Both the position numbers and the translations under genes were made by a program. From positions 1 through 33,216 of the forward strand of contig JBQTGV010000099.1 of NCBI GenBank assembly GCA_052390515.1: 33,216 nt of DNA, written 5' to 3'. Shown here in pieces: positions 1,082-8,719 of the stretch; within the stretch, counting starts at the first letter, position 1, and every line of letters begins with the position of its first letter. The notes beneath the pieces are model-generated. The model was not told the DNA's origin. It searched no databases and worked only from the letters and a program-made list of their open reading frames with translations. This DNA is from Candidatus Eiseniibacteriota bacterium. GTDB lineage: Bacteria > ARS69.

Positions 1082-2191
1082 CTATCCTCGCGCGGTCTGC
1101 CCGATCCGGAGAGCCTCCTCCATCAGATCGATGGTGGCGCCCACCGGCAGCCCCACCACGTTGGACCAGTCTCCCCGGATTCCCTCGACGAGCAGCGCGC
1201 CGCGGCCCTGGATGGCGTAGGCACCGGCCTTGTCCATGGGCTCGCCGGTGGCCACGTAACGGCGGATCTCCTCCGCGCCGAGGGGTACGAACGTGACGTG
1301 GGTGGAGACGACTCGCCCGTGGAAGCGGCTTGCGCCGGGGGCCGCGACGCAGACCCCGGTGTGCACGACGTGCTCCGTCCCGGAGAGCTCGGTCAGCATG
1401 CGGACCGCCTCCCCCGTGCTCCGGGGCTTGCCGTACACCCGCTCGCCCAGGACGACGATGGTGTCCGCGGCGATGACGAGCGCGTCCTTCCGCTTCGCCG
1501 CCGCGGCCCGCGCCTTCCGCTCGGCCAGCACCCGGGCCTGCTCTTTGGGGTCGGCCGGAAGGTCCGCTTCCTCGTCCACGTCGGTCGGCTCCACGTCGAA
1601 GCGCAGCCCGAGCTCCTCGAGCAGCGCGCGCCGTCGCGGGGACGCCGAGGCCAGAACGACGGGAATCTGGAGGAGTGGTGAATCCGATCCCACGATCCCC
1701 TGCCGCGCGCCCACGGGTGAGCCCCCCGCACCTCCCGGCGCTCGCCGAAGGTCCTCGGAGTCGAGCAGGATGGTGACCGGACCGTCGTTCACCAGATCGA
1801 CGTGCATGTGCGCTCCGAAGCGGCCGGTGGCCACGACCAGCCCCACCTCCCGCAGCCGCCGCTCGAGTGCATCGAGCAGCGGAACGGCTTCCTCCGAAGC
1901 GGCGGCCTTCTCGAACGACGGGCGGCGCCCCTTGCGAGAGTCCGCGTACAGCGTGAACTGCGAGACGAGGAGCACGCCGCCGCCGGCCTCGACCACCGAC
2001 CGGTTCATGCGGCCCTCCTCGTCGGGGAAGATGCGCAGCCCGGCGATCTTGTCGGCGATCCACTCGGCGTCGGCCGGGGAATCCCCGCGGCGCACGCCGG
2101 CCAGCACGAGCAGGCCAGGGCCGACCGAGCCGACCGCTTCGCCGTCCACCGCGACTGACGCGCTCGACACGCGCTGCAGCAGCGCCCGCAT
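1082..2191 (-). CDS. dtd-maf: Fused D-aminoacyl-tRNA deacylase (DTD1) + Maf/YhdE-type nucleoside triphosphate pyrophosphatase
   Basis: N-terminal [30 protein letters not shown] (Dtd). C-terminal [32 protein letters not shown] (Maf). One frame, no stop. ATG overlaps the upstream TGA (ATGA). Confidence 0.93.
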
Positions 2192-3246
2192 CAGTCGGCG
2201 ATCCTCGCCCAGGCCAGCCCGTCGGGACCGCCCCCGGTCGGGATCATGCGGGCGACGCTCCACGTGGCGATTTCCACGACGGCGACGCGGGCGAGACCTC
2301 GGCTCGCCACGTAGGCGAAGGTCCCCTCGGGATCGGTGAGCACACCGATCGGCCGGGCTCCCTCCCGCAGGGCCCGCTCCACCAGCGGGCGAATCTCCTC
2401 GATGGGCCGCTCCTTCCAGTCGTCCTCGTGCAGGTGCGCATCCGCCAGCGCCACGCGCGCGTCGAGCGCACGCTTCTCCGCGTCGATCACCGCGAGATCG
2501 CTGGACAGCAGGCAGGAGGCGAGCGCCATGGTCCCGTCCGGAACGAAGGCGAGTCGGATCGGCTGCAGGCCGCACTCGATCGTGGCGAGCACCGCGAGCG
2601 TCGAGGCGTCCACGACGCGCACCACGTGCTCCTCGTTGCTGCCGACCCAGATCTCTCGCCCGCCCGGACGCACCGCGAGAGCTTCGCTTCCGGCTCCGGT
2701 CGCGACGGACTTCGGCGCCCCGGCCGGGCCGCCCAGCTCGAGGACGACGAGCTTGCCGGATCCGATCGCGGTGGCGAAGGCGCGCTTCCCGTCAGCGGAC
2801 ACCTCGACCATGTGGACGTCGGCTTGCACGTCGTGCTCGCCGACGATCTTCCCGGTCTCGACGTCCACCTCCAGGAGCTTGCGGCTCGTCTCGGAGGTCA
2901 CCAGCACACGGCGCCCGTCGAGCCAGCGGATACCGTGAGGACGCCGGTGGGGGGCGAGGTCGATCGTGCGCAGCGCCTTGCCCTGCACCACGTCGAGCAC
3001 CGTGAGCGTGCTTCCCGGCACCTCCCTGCCGTAGTTCCCCGCCACCGCCCTTCGCCCGTCGGGAGAGACCGCCACCTCGTGAGGGGCGTCCCCCAGCGGG
3101 ATCTCGGCGCGCCGCGTCCCCGATGCGGGATCGATCAGCCACGCGGAGTCGTCGTCCTTGTTCAGCACGATCAGGGTGTCGGAGGCCTTCGCTGCGGCGA
3201 CCGAGAGGCCGATTCCCGCGAGAGCCGCGAGCCAGGTACGAGTCAT
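2191..3246 (-). CDS. Exported YncE/YVTN-type beta-propeller protein
   Basis: Signal peptide [21 protein letters not shown]. Blade repeats [43 protein letters not shown] overlap with upstream gene. Confidence 0.85.
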
Positions 3247-4019
3247 CGTGGCAAGCTCCATTCTCCTGTGTCCAGCGCGAGGATCTCGCTCCGGAAGATG
3301 GTCTCGGCGCGCTCACGGAACGCCGCGAGCTCCGTCAGCGTGCGCGGCAGGACGAGCAGCCGGATCTCGGCGCCGAGGTCCGCCGGAAGATCCCGGTCGA
3401 GATAGCGAAGGCCGAAGTCGTAGCGGTCCGGGCAGTGCCGCATGCGCAGCAACTCGACGAGCGGCCGGATGGTGAACGCCTGGAAGCGCTGCACCGCATC
3501 CGGCACGTCCTCGCGGCGCACGGCCTTCGTGGTCAGGTTCTGGAACAGGAAGAAGGTCTGGCGCAGCTCGACGAGACGTCGCGCCATCTTCGCCGCATGT
3601 GCCGCGCGATCGAACGGCGCGGGCTTGACGATGGCGGCACGGTCGAAGAGCACGAGCGCGTCCCCGTGCCGCTCCGGTTCGAGCAGGCGGTCGCCGTTGC
3701 TGCCCAGGAGGACCACGACGTCCATGAAGTGACAGGGATCCGCGTCCCGGAGCTGGAGGAACTCCTGCGCGTGTCCGTGCCAGGTCGGCTCGGGGAGCCT
3801 CCAGCTGTAGGCCACGGGCGAGAGCCGCGTCAGCGCCGTGCGCAACGCGACGAACGCATCCTCCTTGCGATCGTCGTCGACGACCAGCATGAGGTCGATG
3901 TCCGACCAGTCGTCGGTGCGTCCGGAAGCGTCGCTTCCGCCGAGCCACGCCGCCTGCGCCCAGGGGAGCGGCTCGAGCTCCGCGACGACCGCGTCGATGA
4001 TCTGCCGGCGCTTCAGCAA
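3243..4019 (-). CDS. Pol-beta superfamily nucleotidyltransferase with helical C-terminal domain
   Basis: WLGGSDASGRTDDWSDIDL matches hG[GS]x..DxD; third Asp probably in FMDVV. TTG start with GAGGT SD. Confidence 0.82.
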   Translation of the reverse strand: MLKRRQIIDAVVAELEPLPWAQAAWLGGSDASGRTDDWSDIDLMLVVDDDRKEDAFVALRTALTRLSPVAYSWRLPEPTWHGHAQEFLQLRDADPCHFMDVVVLLGSNGDRLLEPERHGDALVLFDRAAIVKPAPFDRAAHAAKMARRLVELRQTFFLFQNLTTKAVRREDVPDAVQRFQAFTIRPLVELLRMRHCPDRYDFGLRYLDRDLPADLGAEIRLLVLPRTLTELAAFRERAETIFRSEILALDTGEWSLPR

Positions 4020-4029
4020 GTCGGGGACC

Positions 4030-4797
4030 TCACTTCCGGCCGATGAACGCCCAGTGACGCGAGCGGTCGCCGCGGCGGTGCGAGAACAGCTCGCCGGGAT
4101 AGGCGAAGGTGTCGAGGGAGAAGTCGATGAGGTTGTCGCGCGGAACCCGGGCGCTCGCGGCCTGCGCCAGAGCGCAGGAGGGCAGGTCGAGGCGGACCTT
4201 GCCGTGCGACGCGTCGCCGCTCGGAACCGCGAAGGTCTCCGGGAAGAGGCCGGCTACCTCCGGTCCCACCTCGTAGCTCGGGCCGCGGATGGCCGGTCCG
4301 GTGGCGACCAGCAGGTCGCCGGTCTTGACGTCCAGCTCCTCGACCAGCACGCGGACCACGTTCTTCACGATGCCCGCGGCGAGGCCTCGCCAGCCGGCGT
4401 GTGCGAGACCGACCGCCGGACCGGCCGCGTCGGCGAAGAACACCGGCACGCAGTCCGCGACCGTGACCGCGAGCGCGACACCGCTCTCCGCGGACACGAG
4501 CCCGTCCCACTTGCCCTCCGGGAGCCTTCCGTCGGCGCCGACCACCGCGACGTCGGACCCGTGGGCGAGCGCCGGCGCCACGATCCTCCCCGGGTCCAGC
4601 TCCACCGCCTCGAGCAGCCGCCTGCGGCGCTCGCGCACCTCGCCCGGGTCGTCGCCGGTGGACAGGGAGAAGTTGCCCAGGCTCGCGTGGGTGACGCCGT
4701 GGACCACGTCGGGTACCAAGCCGAGCGCGGGCGCCCGGTACCACAGCGCCTCGCCGCGCGCGACGAGGCGTGCCGCGGAGCCCAGCGCGCCGGTCAC
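4030..4797 (-). CDS. pgeF: PgeF/YfiH laccase-domain protein (peptidoglycan editing factor / purine nucleoside phosphorylase)
   Basis: AHGSDV, DGLVS, VTVADCVPV, LAHAGWRG, GPAI..YEVG, FSHRR. GTG start overlaps the rel stop (GTGA). Confidence 0.92.
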   Translation of the reverse strand: MTGALGSAARLVARGEALWYRAPALGLVPDVVHGVTHASLGNFSLSTGDDPGEVRERRRRLLEAVELDPGRIVAPALAHGSDVAVVGADGRLPEGKWDGLVSAESGVALAVTVADCVPVFFADAAGPAVGLAHAGWRGLAAGIVKNVVRVLVEELDVKTGDLLVATGPAIRGPSYEVGPEVAGLFPETFAVPSGDASHGKVRLDLPSCALAQAASARVPRDNLIDFSLDTFAYPGELFSHRRGDRSRHWAFIGRK

Positions 4798-7013
4798 GTC
4801 CCCTGGGCCGGCAACCCGGGTGCGGCCCCTCCGCCGTCGGCGTGGTCCACGCGCCGCACGTCGTCGACGCCCTTGACCCGGCGCATCACCTTCACCACCC
4901 GGCGCAGGTGCGGCAGATCCTCGACCTCGACCAGGAACGTCCCCACCGCACGCGGCCCGTCCTGCTCCATGCTCGCGGAGAGGATGTTGGTGTCGAGGCC
5001 GCTGATCGCGGAGGACACGTCGGCCAGCAGACCCTTGCGCTGCTCCCCCACCACCAGGAGCTTCACGCGGAACCTCTCGTCCGGCGCGACGTCCCAGCTC
5101 ACTTCGATGCGCCGTTCCAGCTCCACCGTCGGCGGCAGCGTGTTCGGACAGTCGGAGCGATGCACGGAGATGCCGCGCCCCCGCGTCACGATGCCGACGA
5201 TGCTCTCTCCCGGCAGCGGTTGGCAACACTGGGCGAAGTGCAGCATCACGTTCGATTCGCCCTGCACCTTGACCCCGCCGTCCTTCTTCCGCGTGAAGGT
5301 CAGGATGCGGCGGATGGTCGAGGGCTCTTCCTTCTCCTCCAGGTCCGGGAACAGCTTGCGGATGACGTGCAGCGCGGAGTAGTCGCCCTGACCGACGGTC
5401 TGCTGCAGCTTCTCGACCGAATCGAAGCCGAGCCCCTTCACCGCGTCGTCGTCGAGGACGGCGTCCAGGTCCACTCGCTGGCGCCGCGCCTCGCGGGCCA
5501 GCATCTCCCGTCCGAGCGCCATGGAGTGGTCCATCGTCTCGTGCCGGTGCCAGCGGCGGATCTTGCTGCGCGCTCCCGCCGTGGCCACCATCTTGAGCCA
5601 GTCCTGGCTCGGCTTGGCGCTCGGCGAGGTGATGATGTCCACCGTGTCGCCGCTCTCCAGGCGGTAGCGCAGTGGGACGATCCGCTCGTTGACGCGGGCG
5701 CCGACGCAGTGGTCCCCGATCTCGGTGTGGATCAGGTAGGCGAAGTCGATCGGCGTCGATCCCTTGGGAAGCACCTTGAGATCGCCCTTCGGAGTGAAGA
5801 CGAAGACCTCCTGCTGGAAGAGGTCGGACTTCAGCAGATCGAAGAACTCCTCGGCGTTCTGGTCGGCCTGCTCCTTCACCAGCTCGCCGAGCCACGGGAA
5901 GCTGCCCACCAGATCGGTGAAGTGCGTCTTGCCTTCCTTGTACTTCCAGTGCGCGGCGATGCCGAACTCCGCTTCGCCGTGCATCTCCGGGGTGCGGATC
6001 TGGAACTCCACCCACACCCGCTCCGGCCCGATCACCGTGGTGTGCAGCGAGCGGTAGTGGTTCGACTTGGGCGAAGCGATGTAGTCCTTGACCCGTTCCG
6101 GCACCGGCTTCCACAGCGAGTGGATGATCCCCAGCGTCTCGTAGCAGTCCCGCGGCGTGGGCACGACGACGCGCACGGCCATCAGGTCGTGGATGTCCTC
6201 GAAGCGGCGCTGGCGCGTCGTCATCTTCATCCAGATGCTGTAGAAGTGCTTCGCGCGAGCCTGCACCTCCGCCTCGATCCCCTCCGCGGCGAGCATTTCC
6301 GCCAGGGGATCCGTGAGCTGGCGGAGGAACATCTCCCGCTGGCCCTTCTTCATCGCCACCTTCTCGACCAGGTCCAGGTACGCCTCCGGCTCGAGGTGCT
6401 TGAGCGCGAGGTCCTCGAGCTCCCACTTGATCGTGGCGATGCCGAAGCGGTGAGCGAGCGGCGCGTAGATCTCCAGCGTCTCCCGCGCGATCCGCTCCCG
6501 TCGATCCCGCGACAGGAAGTGCAGCGTCCTCATGTTGTGCACGCGGTCGGCCAGCTTGATGAGCACGACGCGCAGGTCCTTGGCGATGGCCAGCAGCATC
6601 TTCCGCCAGTTCTCGGCGTGATGCTCCTCGGCGCTGCGGAACTCGTAGCCGCCGATCTTGGACACTCCATCCACGATCTCGGCGACGTGCTCGCCGAACT
6701 CGGTGCGCATCCGCTCGACGCCCACCTCGGTGTCCTCGATCACGTCGTGCAGGAGACCGGCGACGATCGTGGTGGTGTCCAGATGCAGCTCGGCGAGGAT
6801 GATGGCCACCGCCAGGCAGTGCTCCACGTACGGCGCTCCTGAGAACCGCACTTGGCCGAGGTGGTGCTCCTTCGAGAACTCGTAGGCCTTCTGGATGAGC
6901 ACGAGGTCGTAGCGATCCCGCTCGTGAAGGGAGCGGAGCAGGTCCTCGTACGTGTACCGGCGCTCGGGCGGCGGCGAAGCGCCCTCGAGCTCGCGCACGC
7001 GACGGGCGGTCAC
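4794..7013 (-). CDS. rel: Bifunctional (p)ppGpp synthetase/hydrolase Rel (long RSH)
   Basis: LLHDVIED (intact HD), IKLADRVHNMRT, RAKHFYSI, YRSLHT, EFQIRT, AAHWKYK, TGS (FTPKG..TPIDFAY), CCQPLPG..HRSDC, C-terminal ACT. GTGA overlap with recJ. Confidence 0.96.
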   Translation of the reverse strand: MTARRVRELEGASPPPERRYTYEDLLRSLHERDRYDLVLIQKAYEFSKEHHLGQVRFSGAPYVEHCLAVAIILAELHLDTTTIVAGLLHDVIEDTEVGVERMRTEFGEHVAEIVDGVSKIGGYEFRSAEEHHAENWRKMLLAIAKDLRVVLIKLADRVHNMRTLHFLSRDRRERIARETLEIYAPLAHRFGIATIKWELEDLALKHLEPEAYLDLVEKVAMKKGQREMFLRQLTDPLAEMLAAEGIEAEVQARAKHFYSIWMKMTTRQRRFEDIHDLMAVRVVVPTPRDCYETLGIIHSLWKPVPERVKDYIASPKSNHYRSLHTTVIGPERVWVEFQIRTPEMHGEAEFGIAAHWKYKEGKTHFTDLVGSFPWLGELVKEQADQNAEEFFDLLKSDLFQQEVFVFTPKGDLKVLPKGSTPIDFAYLIHTEIGDHCVGARVNERIVPLRYRLESGDTVDIITSPSAKPSQDWLKMVATAGARSKIRRWHRHETMDHSMALGREMLAREARRQRVDLDAVLDDDAVKGLGFDSVEKLQQTVGQGDYSALHVIRKLFPDLEEKEEPSTIRRILTFTRKKDGGVKVQGESNVMLHFAQCCQPLPGESIVGIVTRGRGISVHRSDCPNTLPPTVELERRIEVSWDVAPDERFRVKLLVVGEQRKGLLADVSSAISGLDTNILSASMEQDGPRAVGTFLVEVEDLPHLRRVVKVMRRVKGVDDVRRVDHADGGGAAPGLPAQGT

Positions 7014-8719
7014 GACACCGTCTCCCGCACGTCGATGAGCTGCAGCTGTTCGGAACGTCGGTCGTTCCACTCGTTGATGGTGACGTGGCCGACGATGTCC
7101 AGCGGCCCGGTCAGTGCGTCGGCGTCGATCCGATCGCCGAGGTCGAAGCCGATGCAGTCCAGCGGCGGTCCGCCGTTGCGCTTGATCGAGAGCTTCAGGT
7201 GCCCGCGACCCACCACGCGGGCGGGTCCGGTGGTGGCGGCGCCGCGCAGTAGGAAGGTCGGTCGGGGATTGCCGAATCCGAACGGCGCCAGCCGTTCGAG
7301 ATCGGTGGCGAGACCGATGTCGATCTCGCGCGGGTCGATCTCGCCGTCGATGCGCAGCCGCGGGCGGCGGTTGTCGTCGGTCAGCCGCCGCGAGCAGCCG
7401 GCGGCGAAGCGTTCGCGAAACTCCGGGATCCGGCCGCGATCGATGGTCAGGCCCGCGGCCATCTCGTGTCCGCCGTACTGCACGAGCAGGTCGCGGCACT
7501 CGTCCAGGATGGAGCACACGTCCACGCCGGGGATGGAGCGGAGCGATCCGCGGCCGACGTCGCCCTCCATGGCGATCAGCGCCGCGGGCCGGTGGTAGCG
7601 GTCGACCAGACGCGCGGTGGCTATCCCGATCACGCCCGGATGCCAGCCGTTCGACGCGAGCACGATTCCGTCGGGGTCTTCGCCGGCGGTCCCGTTGGCG
7701 ATGGCGGTGAGCGCCTGCTCCAGGGTGGTGGCGCTGAACTCCTGGCGGCGGCGGTTCTCCTCGTCGAGCTGCCGCGCCAGCTTGTTCGCGCGGCCGGTGT
7801 CCTCCGTCGTCAGCAGGTGGACCGCGTCCGCCGAGTCCTCCAGCCTCCCCGCCGCGTTGATGCGCGGTCCCAGCAGGTAGCCGATGTGCCAGGCCTCGAT
7901 GCGGCCCTCGATTCCGGAGGCCTGTGCCAGCGCCATGATCCCGACCTTCTCGCGGCGGTTCATCACTTCCAGTCCTTCGTGCACGAGAGCGCGGTTCTCC
8001 CCGTCCAGCGGCACCACGTCGGCGATGGTCCCGAACGCCACGAGATCCAGATCCCGGGAGAGGTCGAGCTCGTGCTCCAGCTCGTCGACGATTCCGCGCA
8101 GCAGCTGGAAGACCACGCCCACGCCGGCGAGCCGCTTGTCCGGGTACTCGCAGCCGAGCTGCTTCGGATCGACGACGGCGGTGGCGGGGGGAAGCGAAGG
8201 CCCCGGCGAGTGATGATCGGTCACGATCGTCTCGATCCCCAGCTCCGCGAGGCGGGCCACCTCGTCGACCGAGCGGATGCCGCAGTCCACGGTGACGACC
8301 ACCGCCGGCTTCCGCTCCGTGAGCTCCGGGATGATCTTCATGGACAGTCCGTAACCGTGCACGAGGCGCTTGGGCATCAGGAAGTCGACGTTCGCGCCGA
8401 GCTGACGGAGAGCGCGCACAGCGAGCGAGGTGCCCGTCACCCCGTCGACGTCGAAGTCCCCGAAGATGAGGATCCTCTCGTTCCGCGAGAGCGCGCGGAG
8501 CAGCCGGTCCACGGCGACATCCGCCCCGCGCAGGCGCCGCGGCGGCGAGAGCTGATCGATGGACGGATTCAGGAACCGGCGCGCCTCGGCGGGATCGGAC
8601 TTGCCTCGCCCGACGAGCACCCGCGCGACGACGGCAGGCACACCCAGCTCGGCAACGAGGCGCGCGACCTCCTTCGCCTCGACCGGCGCCGGTTCGATCC
8701 AGTTCTTGCGACGCACCAC
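7010..8719 (-). CDS. recJ: Single-stranded-DNA-specific exonuclease RecJ
   Basis: GDFDVDG, TVDCG, TDHH, GTIADVVPL, PRINAAGR, GSLRS, GGHEMAAG, PFGFGNP. Confidence 0.97.
   Translation of the reverse strand: MVRRKNWIEPAPVEAKEVARLVAELGVPAVVARVLVGRGKSDPAEARRFLNPSIDQLSPPRRLRGADVAVDRLLRALSRNERILIFGDFDVDGVTGTSLAVRALRQLGANVDFLMPKRLVHGYGLSMKIIPELTERKPAVVVTVDCGIRSVDEVARLAELGIETIVTDHHSPGPSLPPATAVVDPKQLGCEYPDKRLAGVGVVFQLLRGIVDELEHELDLSRDLDLVAFGTIADVVPLDGENRALVHEGLEVMNRREKVGIMALAQASGIEGRIEAWHIGYLLGPRINAAGRLEDSADAVHLLTTEDTGRANKLARQLDEENRRRQEFSATTLEQALTAIANGTAGEDPDGIVLASNGWHPGVIGIATARLVDRYHRPAALIAMEGDVGRGSLRSIPGVDVCSILDECRDLLVQYGGHEMAAGLTIDRGRIPEFRERFAAGCSRRLTDDNRRPRLRIDGEIDPREIDIGLATDLERLAPFGFGNPRPTFLLRGAATTGPARVVGRGHLKLSIKRNGGPPLDCIGFDLGDRIDADALTGPLDIVGHVTINEWNDRRSEQLQLIDVRETVS

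Follow-up and report, generated by a model that had tools for sequence, protein, structure and literature searches.

Why would a bacterium make an enzyme of tRNA chirality proofreading and an enzyme of nucleotide-pool cleaning as one polypeptide? The question is raised by a gene, here called dtd-maf, on contig JBQTGV010000099.1 of the Candidatus Eiseniibacteriota bacterium assembly GCA_052390515.1. The window that we analyzed is positions 1 to 33,216 of this contig, a stretch of 33,216 nucleotides (nt), and all coordinates refer to it. An earlier reading of the letters of the window (the original prediction) had proposed that one open reading frame (ORF) of 369 amino acids (aa) holds a complete D-aminoacyl-tRNA deacylase (DTD) and a complete Maf nucleotide pyrophosphatase, and that the product is bifunctional. 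The DTD-Maf fusion is genuine and marks a whole lineage rather than one genome. Below we describe its two halves, its distribution and origin, and the explanations that can be offered for the linkage.

Both Halves of the Fused Protein Are Complete

Translation of dtd-maf (window 2191..1082, minus strand) gives 369 residues with a single terminal stop. The start is sound, since homologues begin at the same first residues, MRALLQRV. Pfam and NCBIfam searches confirmed that both domains are complete, and the motifs named in the original prediction are all present: SQFTL (77-81) and NDGPVT (135-140) in the DTD half, and SPRR (184-187), ADT (242-244) and AIQG (326-329) in the Maf half.

The Pfam family Tyr_Deacylase (PF02580) matches aa 2-144 over profile positions 1-144 of 144 (E 4.6e-54, 183.1 bits versus a cut-off of 25), and the NCBIfam model TIGR00256 (dtd) scores 172.5 bits versus a cut-off of 101.5. 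Escherichia coli Dtd (1jke) aligns ungapped to aa 1-143 (E 4.8e-39) and the Aquifex aeolicus protein (2dbo) to aa 1-147 (E 1.4e-38). Both have the same core length as the DTD half and share with it the two motifs known in the DTD literature as SQFTL and NxGPVT, the latter with the Gly-cisPro pair. Bacterial DTD, a homodimer whose active sites span both subunits, clears tRNA of D-amino acids and tRNA-Ala of mischarged glycine, and the Gly-cisPro pair checks chirality. Known bacterial DTD proteins end at about 145 residues, whereas in the fused chain the last strand is followed by a linker and then by the second enzyme. Human DTD1 (2okv, 209 aa), whose alignment reaches aa 1-158, is longer than the core, and the DTD fold thus tolerates a C-terminal extension. 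In an alignment of 85 fused proteins, from which all residue counts given here were taken, Q6, R7, Q78, F79, T80, L81, M129, N135, G137, P138, V139 and T140 are invariant (85/85) and S77 is conserved in 79/85.

The Maf half is matched by the Pfam family Maf (PF02545) at aa 178-359 (profile 2-186 of 187, E 4.6e-61, 206.2 bits versus a cut-off of 27) and by the NCBIfam model TIGR00172 (maf; 165.4 bits versus a cut-off of 117.15), while none of the species-level equivalog models for Maf in NCBIfam reached its cut-off. Full-domain matches were obtained to Bacillus subtilis Maf (1ex2 and 4heb, E ∼1e-37) and E. coli YhdE (4p0e, E ∼1e-32), from which the fused Maf differs in an extra N-terminal extension of ∼15 residues and in its position behind DTD. 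The Maf family signature has been described as S-R-E-K-D-K, with the subfamily motifs R-T-Q for YhdE and W-Q-E for YceF (Tchigvintsev et al., 2013; PMC3899018). Through an ungapped alignment to 1ex2 the signature maps to S184, R187, E207, K226, D243 and K255 and the R-T-Q motif to R186, T244 and Q328; both sets are common to the B. subtilis, E. coli and fused proteins. S184, R187, D243 and K255 are invariant in the 85 fused proteins, K226 is found in 84/85, and R186, T244 and Q328 in 85/85 each. This is in accordance with the original prediction, which took R, T and Q as marks of the YhdE type acting on deoxythymidine triphosphate (dTTP) and uridine triphosphate (UTP) rather than of the YceF type; judged by these residues, the Maf half is a YhdE-type Maf. 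Such enzymes are described as hydrolyzing dTTP, UTP and CTP to a monophosphate and pyrophosphate, with a preference for m5UTP, pseudo-UTP and m5CTP (PMC3899018).

A pseudoenzyme or a decaying half was considered as well and is ruled out by residue conservation over the 85 fused proteins: as the catalytic residues are kept in both halves, neither is decaying. A search of the whole genome with both Pfam families returned one place for each, in both cases the dtd-maf gene, and no second dtd or maf was found in this 95%-complete assembly. Both functions must therefore come from dtd-maf. The proposed bifunctional DTD-Maf protein is supported as the straightforward reading of two complete halves that bear their predicted catalytic signatures.

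The Fusion Is Shared by Relatives

A stop codon or indel in the linker had been named in advance as the observation that would speak against a fusion. Contigs of two other studies span the linker without an indel. The one from run X2 aligns to 1549-2113 without a gap, and the one from run X3 aligns to 1011-2198 with 3 gaps, which are insertions after 1041 and 1042 (3 letters in total) outside the ORF. A third run, X1, matches perfectly, but it is a possible source of this DNA and hence not independent. None of the runs listed as containing the stretch was an RNA run.

Relatives carry the same architecture. Two proteins from other contigs, P0002 and P0003, are exactly 369 aa long and 93% and 88% identical. 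In a collection of 5.8 billion proteins, 92 of the 120 best clusters have both Pfam domains, with identities of 39-93% and lengths of 275-414 aa. Within the window's own group of 12 genomes, which form one family, the uninterrupted fusion is present in seven (G000, G003, G005, G006, G007, G009 and G010), so that the related genomes to which the original prediction had pointed bear it out. Among the relatives with NCBI labels, one of 67% identity is called ‘Gemmatimonadetes bacterium’ and one of 45% (P0075) ‘Candidatus Eisenbacteria bacterium’; the P0075 label is the single one from which we read the taxonomic position of the fused groups further away.

Outside these relatives DTD and Maf are normally separate, as had been stated at the outset. 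An exhaustive search of 1.84 billion representatives gave 24,320 matches at E ≤ 1e-10, and few of the best-ranked ones span both domains: among the best 150 representatives, five have both in one stretch, together with one truncated form.

The Fused Gene Derives from a Tight Gene Pair

Separate but adjacent forms were found in the phylum of genome G012, whose NCBI record titles read Gemmatimonadota. When contigs were scanned with the fused alignment, the only loci with both genes among the matches listed were in four metagenome-assembled genomes (MAGs) titled Gemmatimonadota or Gemmatimonadaceae. All four have separate dtd and maf genes, with stop and start overlapping or nearly abutting, and no named genome with the fusion was among the matches listed. 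Of 71 sampled genomes of this phylum, 58 have maf directly behind dtd on one strand (57/70 without G073). The remaining 13 comprise seven with 259-1361 nt between the genes, one with 13.8 kb between them on the same contig, one with the genes on different contigs, two with one domain only and two without a match. An uninterrupted fusion was found in 0 of 301 sampled genomes of the phylum (297 without G113, G173, G073 and G198); nine of the 301 gave a single full-length match, and all nine have an in-frame stop between the halves. In other phyla, 0 of 76 stand-alone dtd or maf loci had an adjoining partner gene within ∼6 kb, among the matches listed.

The genes of the Gemmatimonadota-titled operon are orthologous to the two halves and have the same order and strand. 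Their junctions are either overlaps of the ATGA type or an in-frame stop followed by a short gap, and the operon gives two polypeptides, a DTD ending in ...LER/LDR and a Maf that starts on its own. DTD-Maf is an operon-derived gene fusion of the Rosetta-stone type, with one frame here and the halves as adjacent genes in relatives, and it descends from the conserved tight pair of dtd followed by maf through stop-codon loss.

The nearest non-adjacent case among the other phyla is a Latescibacterota MAG (L056, CP070763.1), in which rel stands directly before dtd, with maf on the same strand at a distance of 3.5 kb. Here another phylum has the rel-dtd-maf neighborhood in a looser form.

To follow the two forms through the family we concatenated the DTD and Maf segments of 85 fused rows and 16 split ones and built from them a maximum-likelihood tree (quick search), with support from the Shimodaira–Hasegawa-like approximate likelihood ratio test (SH-aLRT). 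The tree was rooted on a single Latescibacterota pair, and P0097, P0100 and nine cluster duplicates were left out. One group (support 93) unites the two split kin, G001 and G011, with 83 of the fused rows, and outside it lie 13 split pairs of G012's phylum and one fused pair, P0083/P0088, on a long branch. Fused and split forms are separated by four state changes on this tree, three of which are forced by well-supported branches. The fusion has thus been made or undone several times, with at least three changes.

Two of the kin loci are instructive. In G011 (L009, 1501-2640) an in-frame TAG at codon 157 is followed by a purine-rich stretch and, 9 codons later, an ATG. As G011 is nested in a fused clade (SH-aLRT 98), it looks like a secondary fission of a fused gene. 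In G004 (L011/L014) a one-base shift within the linker separates the dtd frame, which continues past it with no stop, from the Maf frame, which lacks a start codon; most likely a fused gene has here been broken by an assembly indel or by a lesion.

The Linker Is Variable and Predicted to Be Flexible

Among the 85 fused proteins the linker varies in length from 18 to 75 aa (median 35) and has a high content of Ala, Gly, Arg, Ser and Pro residues. Its last part, the N-terminal extension of Maf (aa ∼162-176), is semi-conserved, with SPL at 172-174 and the consensus R.RLL...SPL...P. The SPL stretch forms the N-terminus of the separate Maf in the split kin G001 and G011, which shows that the linker is made of a variable DTD tail and Maf's own N-terminal extension.

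An AlphaFold2 model of the fusion has a mean predicted local distance difference test score (pLDDT) of 90.9 and a predicted template modeling score (pTM) of 0.56; within the DTD half the pLDDT is 88-98 per 10-residue block. As modeled, the protein is predicted to consist of two confidently folded domains with no fixed mutual orientation. A complex prediction of a DTD-domain dimer with one Maf domain, run without controls, scored 0.00 (mark 0.32) and weighs neither way.

Gene Neighborhood

The fused gene lies in a string of genes that are all on the minus strand between 8719 and 3, in the order recJ, rel, pgeF/YfiH-like, a 258-aa ORF, a YNCE-like propeller, dtd-maf and a PAS histidine kinase (Table 1). 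In the kin loci L004-L009 and L012, pgeF is directly upstream of dtd. L004, L007, L008, L009 and L012 show rel, pgeF and dtd in this order, and pgeF is preceded by rel in every locus whose flank extends far enough. Neither the propeller gene nor the 258-aa ORF has a match in any of the kin loci compared. Since pgeF ends just before dtd in the kin loci, these two middle genes (2191-4019) appear to have been inserted into the rel-pgeF-dtd-maf string of this genome.

The proximity of rel and dtd extends beyond this lineage. Among 59 dtd loci of other phyla, nine, mostly in Bacillota, have rel immediately upstream. A relA-dtd arrangement is known from Bacillus and fits this count; no paper was found for it. 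The Bacillus maf gene is located with the mre/min cell-shape genes, while here maf follows rel, pgeF and dtd.

Table 1. Positions of dtd-maf, its parts and the genes upstream of it in the window.
Feature	Position	Strand	Basis or remark
dtd-maf fused gene	1082..2191	-	369 codons and a TGA stop at 1082-1084; translation without internal stop
DTD (D-aminoacyl-tRNA deacylase) domain, aa 1-145	1757..2191	-	Pfam PF02580, alignment to 1jke, conservation
Linker, aa 146-176 (31 residues)	1664..1756	-	short helix 146-150, disordered 152-161, Maf extension ∼162-176
Disordered stretch, aa 152-161	1709-1738	-	pLDDT < 50
In-frame GTG, codon 160	1712..1714	-	start of the deposited gene call for a 210-aa Maf-only protein; probably a mis-call
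Maf nucleoside-triphosphate pyrophosphatase domain, YhdE type, aa 177-369	1085..1663	-	Pfam PF02545, structures, residues
TGATG	2189..2193	-	TGA of the upstream propeller gene (2193..2191) shares one base with the dtd-maf ATG (2191..2189)
YNCE-like beta-propeller, 356 aa	2191..3261	-	Pfam PF21783, E 3.3e-13
258-aa ORF without Pfam family	3243..4019	-	between pgeF and the propeller gene
pgeF/YfiH-like (Cu-oxidase_4 family)	4030..4821, start approximate	-	Pfam PF02578, E 3.6e-51
rel (RelA/SpoT homologue)	4794..7001, start approximate	-	HD, RelA_SpoT, TGS and ACT domains
recJ	7010..8719	-	DHH, DHHA1 and RecJ_OB domains; head of the same-strand gene string

Why Are the Two Enzymes Joined?

We consider it likely that DTD-Maf consists of two independent house-cleaning enzymes on one flexible tether, with both activities predicted and with joint expression behind rel and pgeF. 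The DTD half would strip D-amino acids from tRNA at its own active site, the Maf half would destroy dTTP, UTP and modified pyrimidine nucleoside triphosphates at its own, and a flexible linker of ∼30 residues would join the two. Loss of the stop codon between translationally coupled dtd and maf genes would have produced the single chain, and selection appears to maintain joint and equal expression of both activities, with rel (stringent response) and pgeF (editing) upstream. As the fusion was made or undone at least three times, the fused and split forms look nearly equivalent. With no shared substrate or product, a floppy linker and forms that interconvert, guaranteed joint and equal expression would be the simplest benefit. 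The open frame, the complete domains, the conserved residues, the phyletic distribution and the derivation from an operon are shown by the data; both activities, their mutual independence and the reason for the linkage are what we infer.

Several points weigh against this explanation. The two activities of every fused member are predicted from sequence. E207, which we take, rather than D206, to be the equivalent of the family's catalytic Glu from the numbering of the E. coli protein, is found in only 73/85 fused proteins, in a variable stretch where the alignment may be at fault. The phylum-wide pairing, repeatedly fused, exceeds the usual chance co-expression and leaves room for a functional coupling. 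The fused rows of the tree came from a search limited to 202-646 residues, in which split forms within fused clades are under-sampled, so that the number and direction of the state changes are uncertain, and the root, a single long-branched outgroup, is weak.

A coupled module would be the main alternative and is in our view unlikely, though not negligible. In one version an obligate DTD dimer would hold two Mafs and so set Maf activity; in a second, Maf would clear nucleotides with 5-methyluridine (m5U) or pseudouridine set free by tRNA degradation, under the same stress conditions that need DTD, its true role in these bacteria being tied to tRNA quality control. The frequency of dtd-maf adjacency in one phylum (58/71), with fusion in a neighboring lineage, versus 0/76 elsewhere is what such a coupling would lead one to expect, as is the fact that adjacency was always kept through at least three changes between fusion and fission. 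The location of the operon behind rel points the same way. The preference of YhdE-type Maf for m5UTP and pseudo-UTP concerns abundant RNA modifications (PMC3899018), and YhdE catalysis has been linked to dimerization (PMC4529217). On general knowledge of the two reactions, however, DTD and Maf have no common substrate or product. The linker, moreover, varies in length and sequence and is predicted to be disordered, the pTM of 0.56 indicates no fixed interdomain arrangement, and split forms persist and re-arise, all of which argues against a coupled module.

A more specific form of the coupling, which we regard as quite unlikely, is that the phylum-wide linkage of dtd to maf and its repeated conversion into a single chain reflect a functional partnership in which Maf serves tRNA quality control by clearing m5U and pseudouridine nucleotides during the stringent response. 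Turnover of tRNA in that response would release modified nucleotides while D-aminoacyl-tRNAs build up, and the DTD dimer might scaffold Maf.

The Deposited Gene Call and an Internal Start

The gene call deposited for the contig is a 210-aa Maf protein (1082-1714, minus strand; P0024, 100% identity) that begins at an in-frame GTG, codon 160 of dtd-maf. It raises the alternative that two proteins are made from one frame, with re-initiation in the linker giving a free Maf beside or instead of the fusion. This we hold to be very unlikely. A GAGG does precede the GTG, and in the kin genome G011 the halves are truly split, with an ATG 9 codons after the in-frame TAG, but 16 nt separate this GAGG from the GTG, the relatives of 93% and 88% identity have Ala at codon 160, and across seven fused loci there is no position-conserved in-frame start with a Shine-Dalgarno-like motif. 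A Maf-only product would, in addition, leave the genome without a translated dtd, though the DTD half is perfectly conserved. Because of the Ala codons in close relatives, the 16-nt spacing and the lack of a conserved start among the seven loci, the 210-aa Maf-only call is probably a mis-call. As a conserved feature, an internal translation start is ruled out by the Ala codon of the relatives and the seven-locus comparison. As annotated, this genome would be scored as lacking dtd, and similar mis-calls could distort surveys of DTD distribution.

Finally, that the fusion is an assembly artefact (a lost stop or an indel), or that one half is a decaying remnant, is extremely unlikely: the frameshift in the linker of G004 shows that such errors or lesions occur, and X1, the sole run that contains the whole stretch, is a possible source of it, but the open architecture is shared by seven independent genomes and by 92 of the best 120 clusters, contigs of two other studies cross the linker without an indel, the catalytic residues followed in the two halves are present in 85/85 (save K226 in 84/85 and E207 in 73/85), and no second dtd or maf was found in the genome.

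Relation to Other Fusions

The original prediction named no characterized fusion of this kind, and our literature search likewise found no publication on a DTD-Maf fusion, with most subscription journals and supplements outside its scope. Automatic annotation by the Joint Genome Institute (JGI) names many fused members ‘MAF protein/D-tyrosyl-tRNA(Tyr) deacylase’. DTD-Maf is thus an uncharacterized but database-visible architecture of two known enzymes. The nearest described Maf fusion is human ASMTL, which has relatives in other eukaryotic Maf fusions and in which a YhdE-like Maf is covalently joined to a second enzyme (PMC3899018); its structure 2p5x matches the Maf half with E 2.5e-31. In ASMTL Maf is N-terminal and joined to a methyltransferase-like domain, whereas the Maf of DTD-Maf stands at the C-terminus, behind a tRNA deacylase.

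Some further proteins with one of the two domains were noted. P0112 (293 aa, on a 394-kb contig) contains a segment of PF01171 (ATP_bind_3, a tRNA-modifying PP-loop family) and a full DTD domain, and could be either a further case of DTD fused to a tRNA-related partner or the product of a wrongly called start. In P0137, P0150, P0181, P0239 and P0271 (475-760 aa) Maf is at the C-terminal end behind other sequence, which could indicate that Maf is joined to other partners fairly often.

Meaning for the Role of Maf

The folds of DTD and Maf are both well understood, but the cellular job of Maf is debated between a delay of cell division and nucleotide house-cleaning (PMC3899018). A Maf that is fused to a tRNA-proofreading enzyme, beside a phylum in which the two genes are near-constant neighbors, is a hint to the process that Maf serves. 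If the partnership in tRNA quality control were true, Maf, whose cellular role is unsettled, would gain a defined physiological context. Fused, split and single-site mutant forms can be compared directly, which makes a simple experimental handle. The main value of the finding is twofold, a correction of the annotation of this genome and a lead on the physiological role of Maf.

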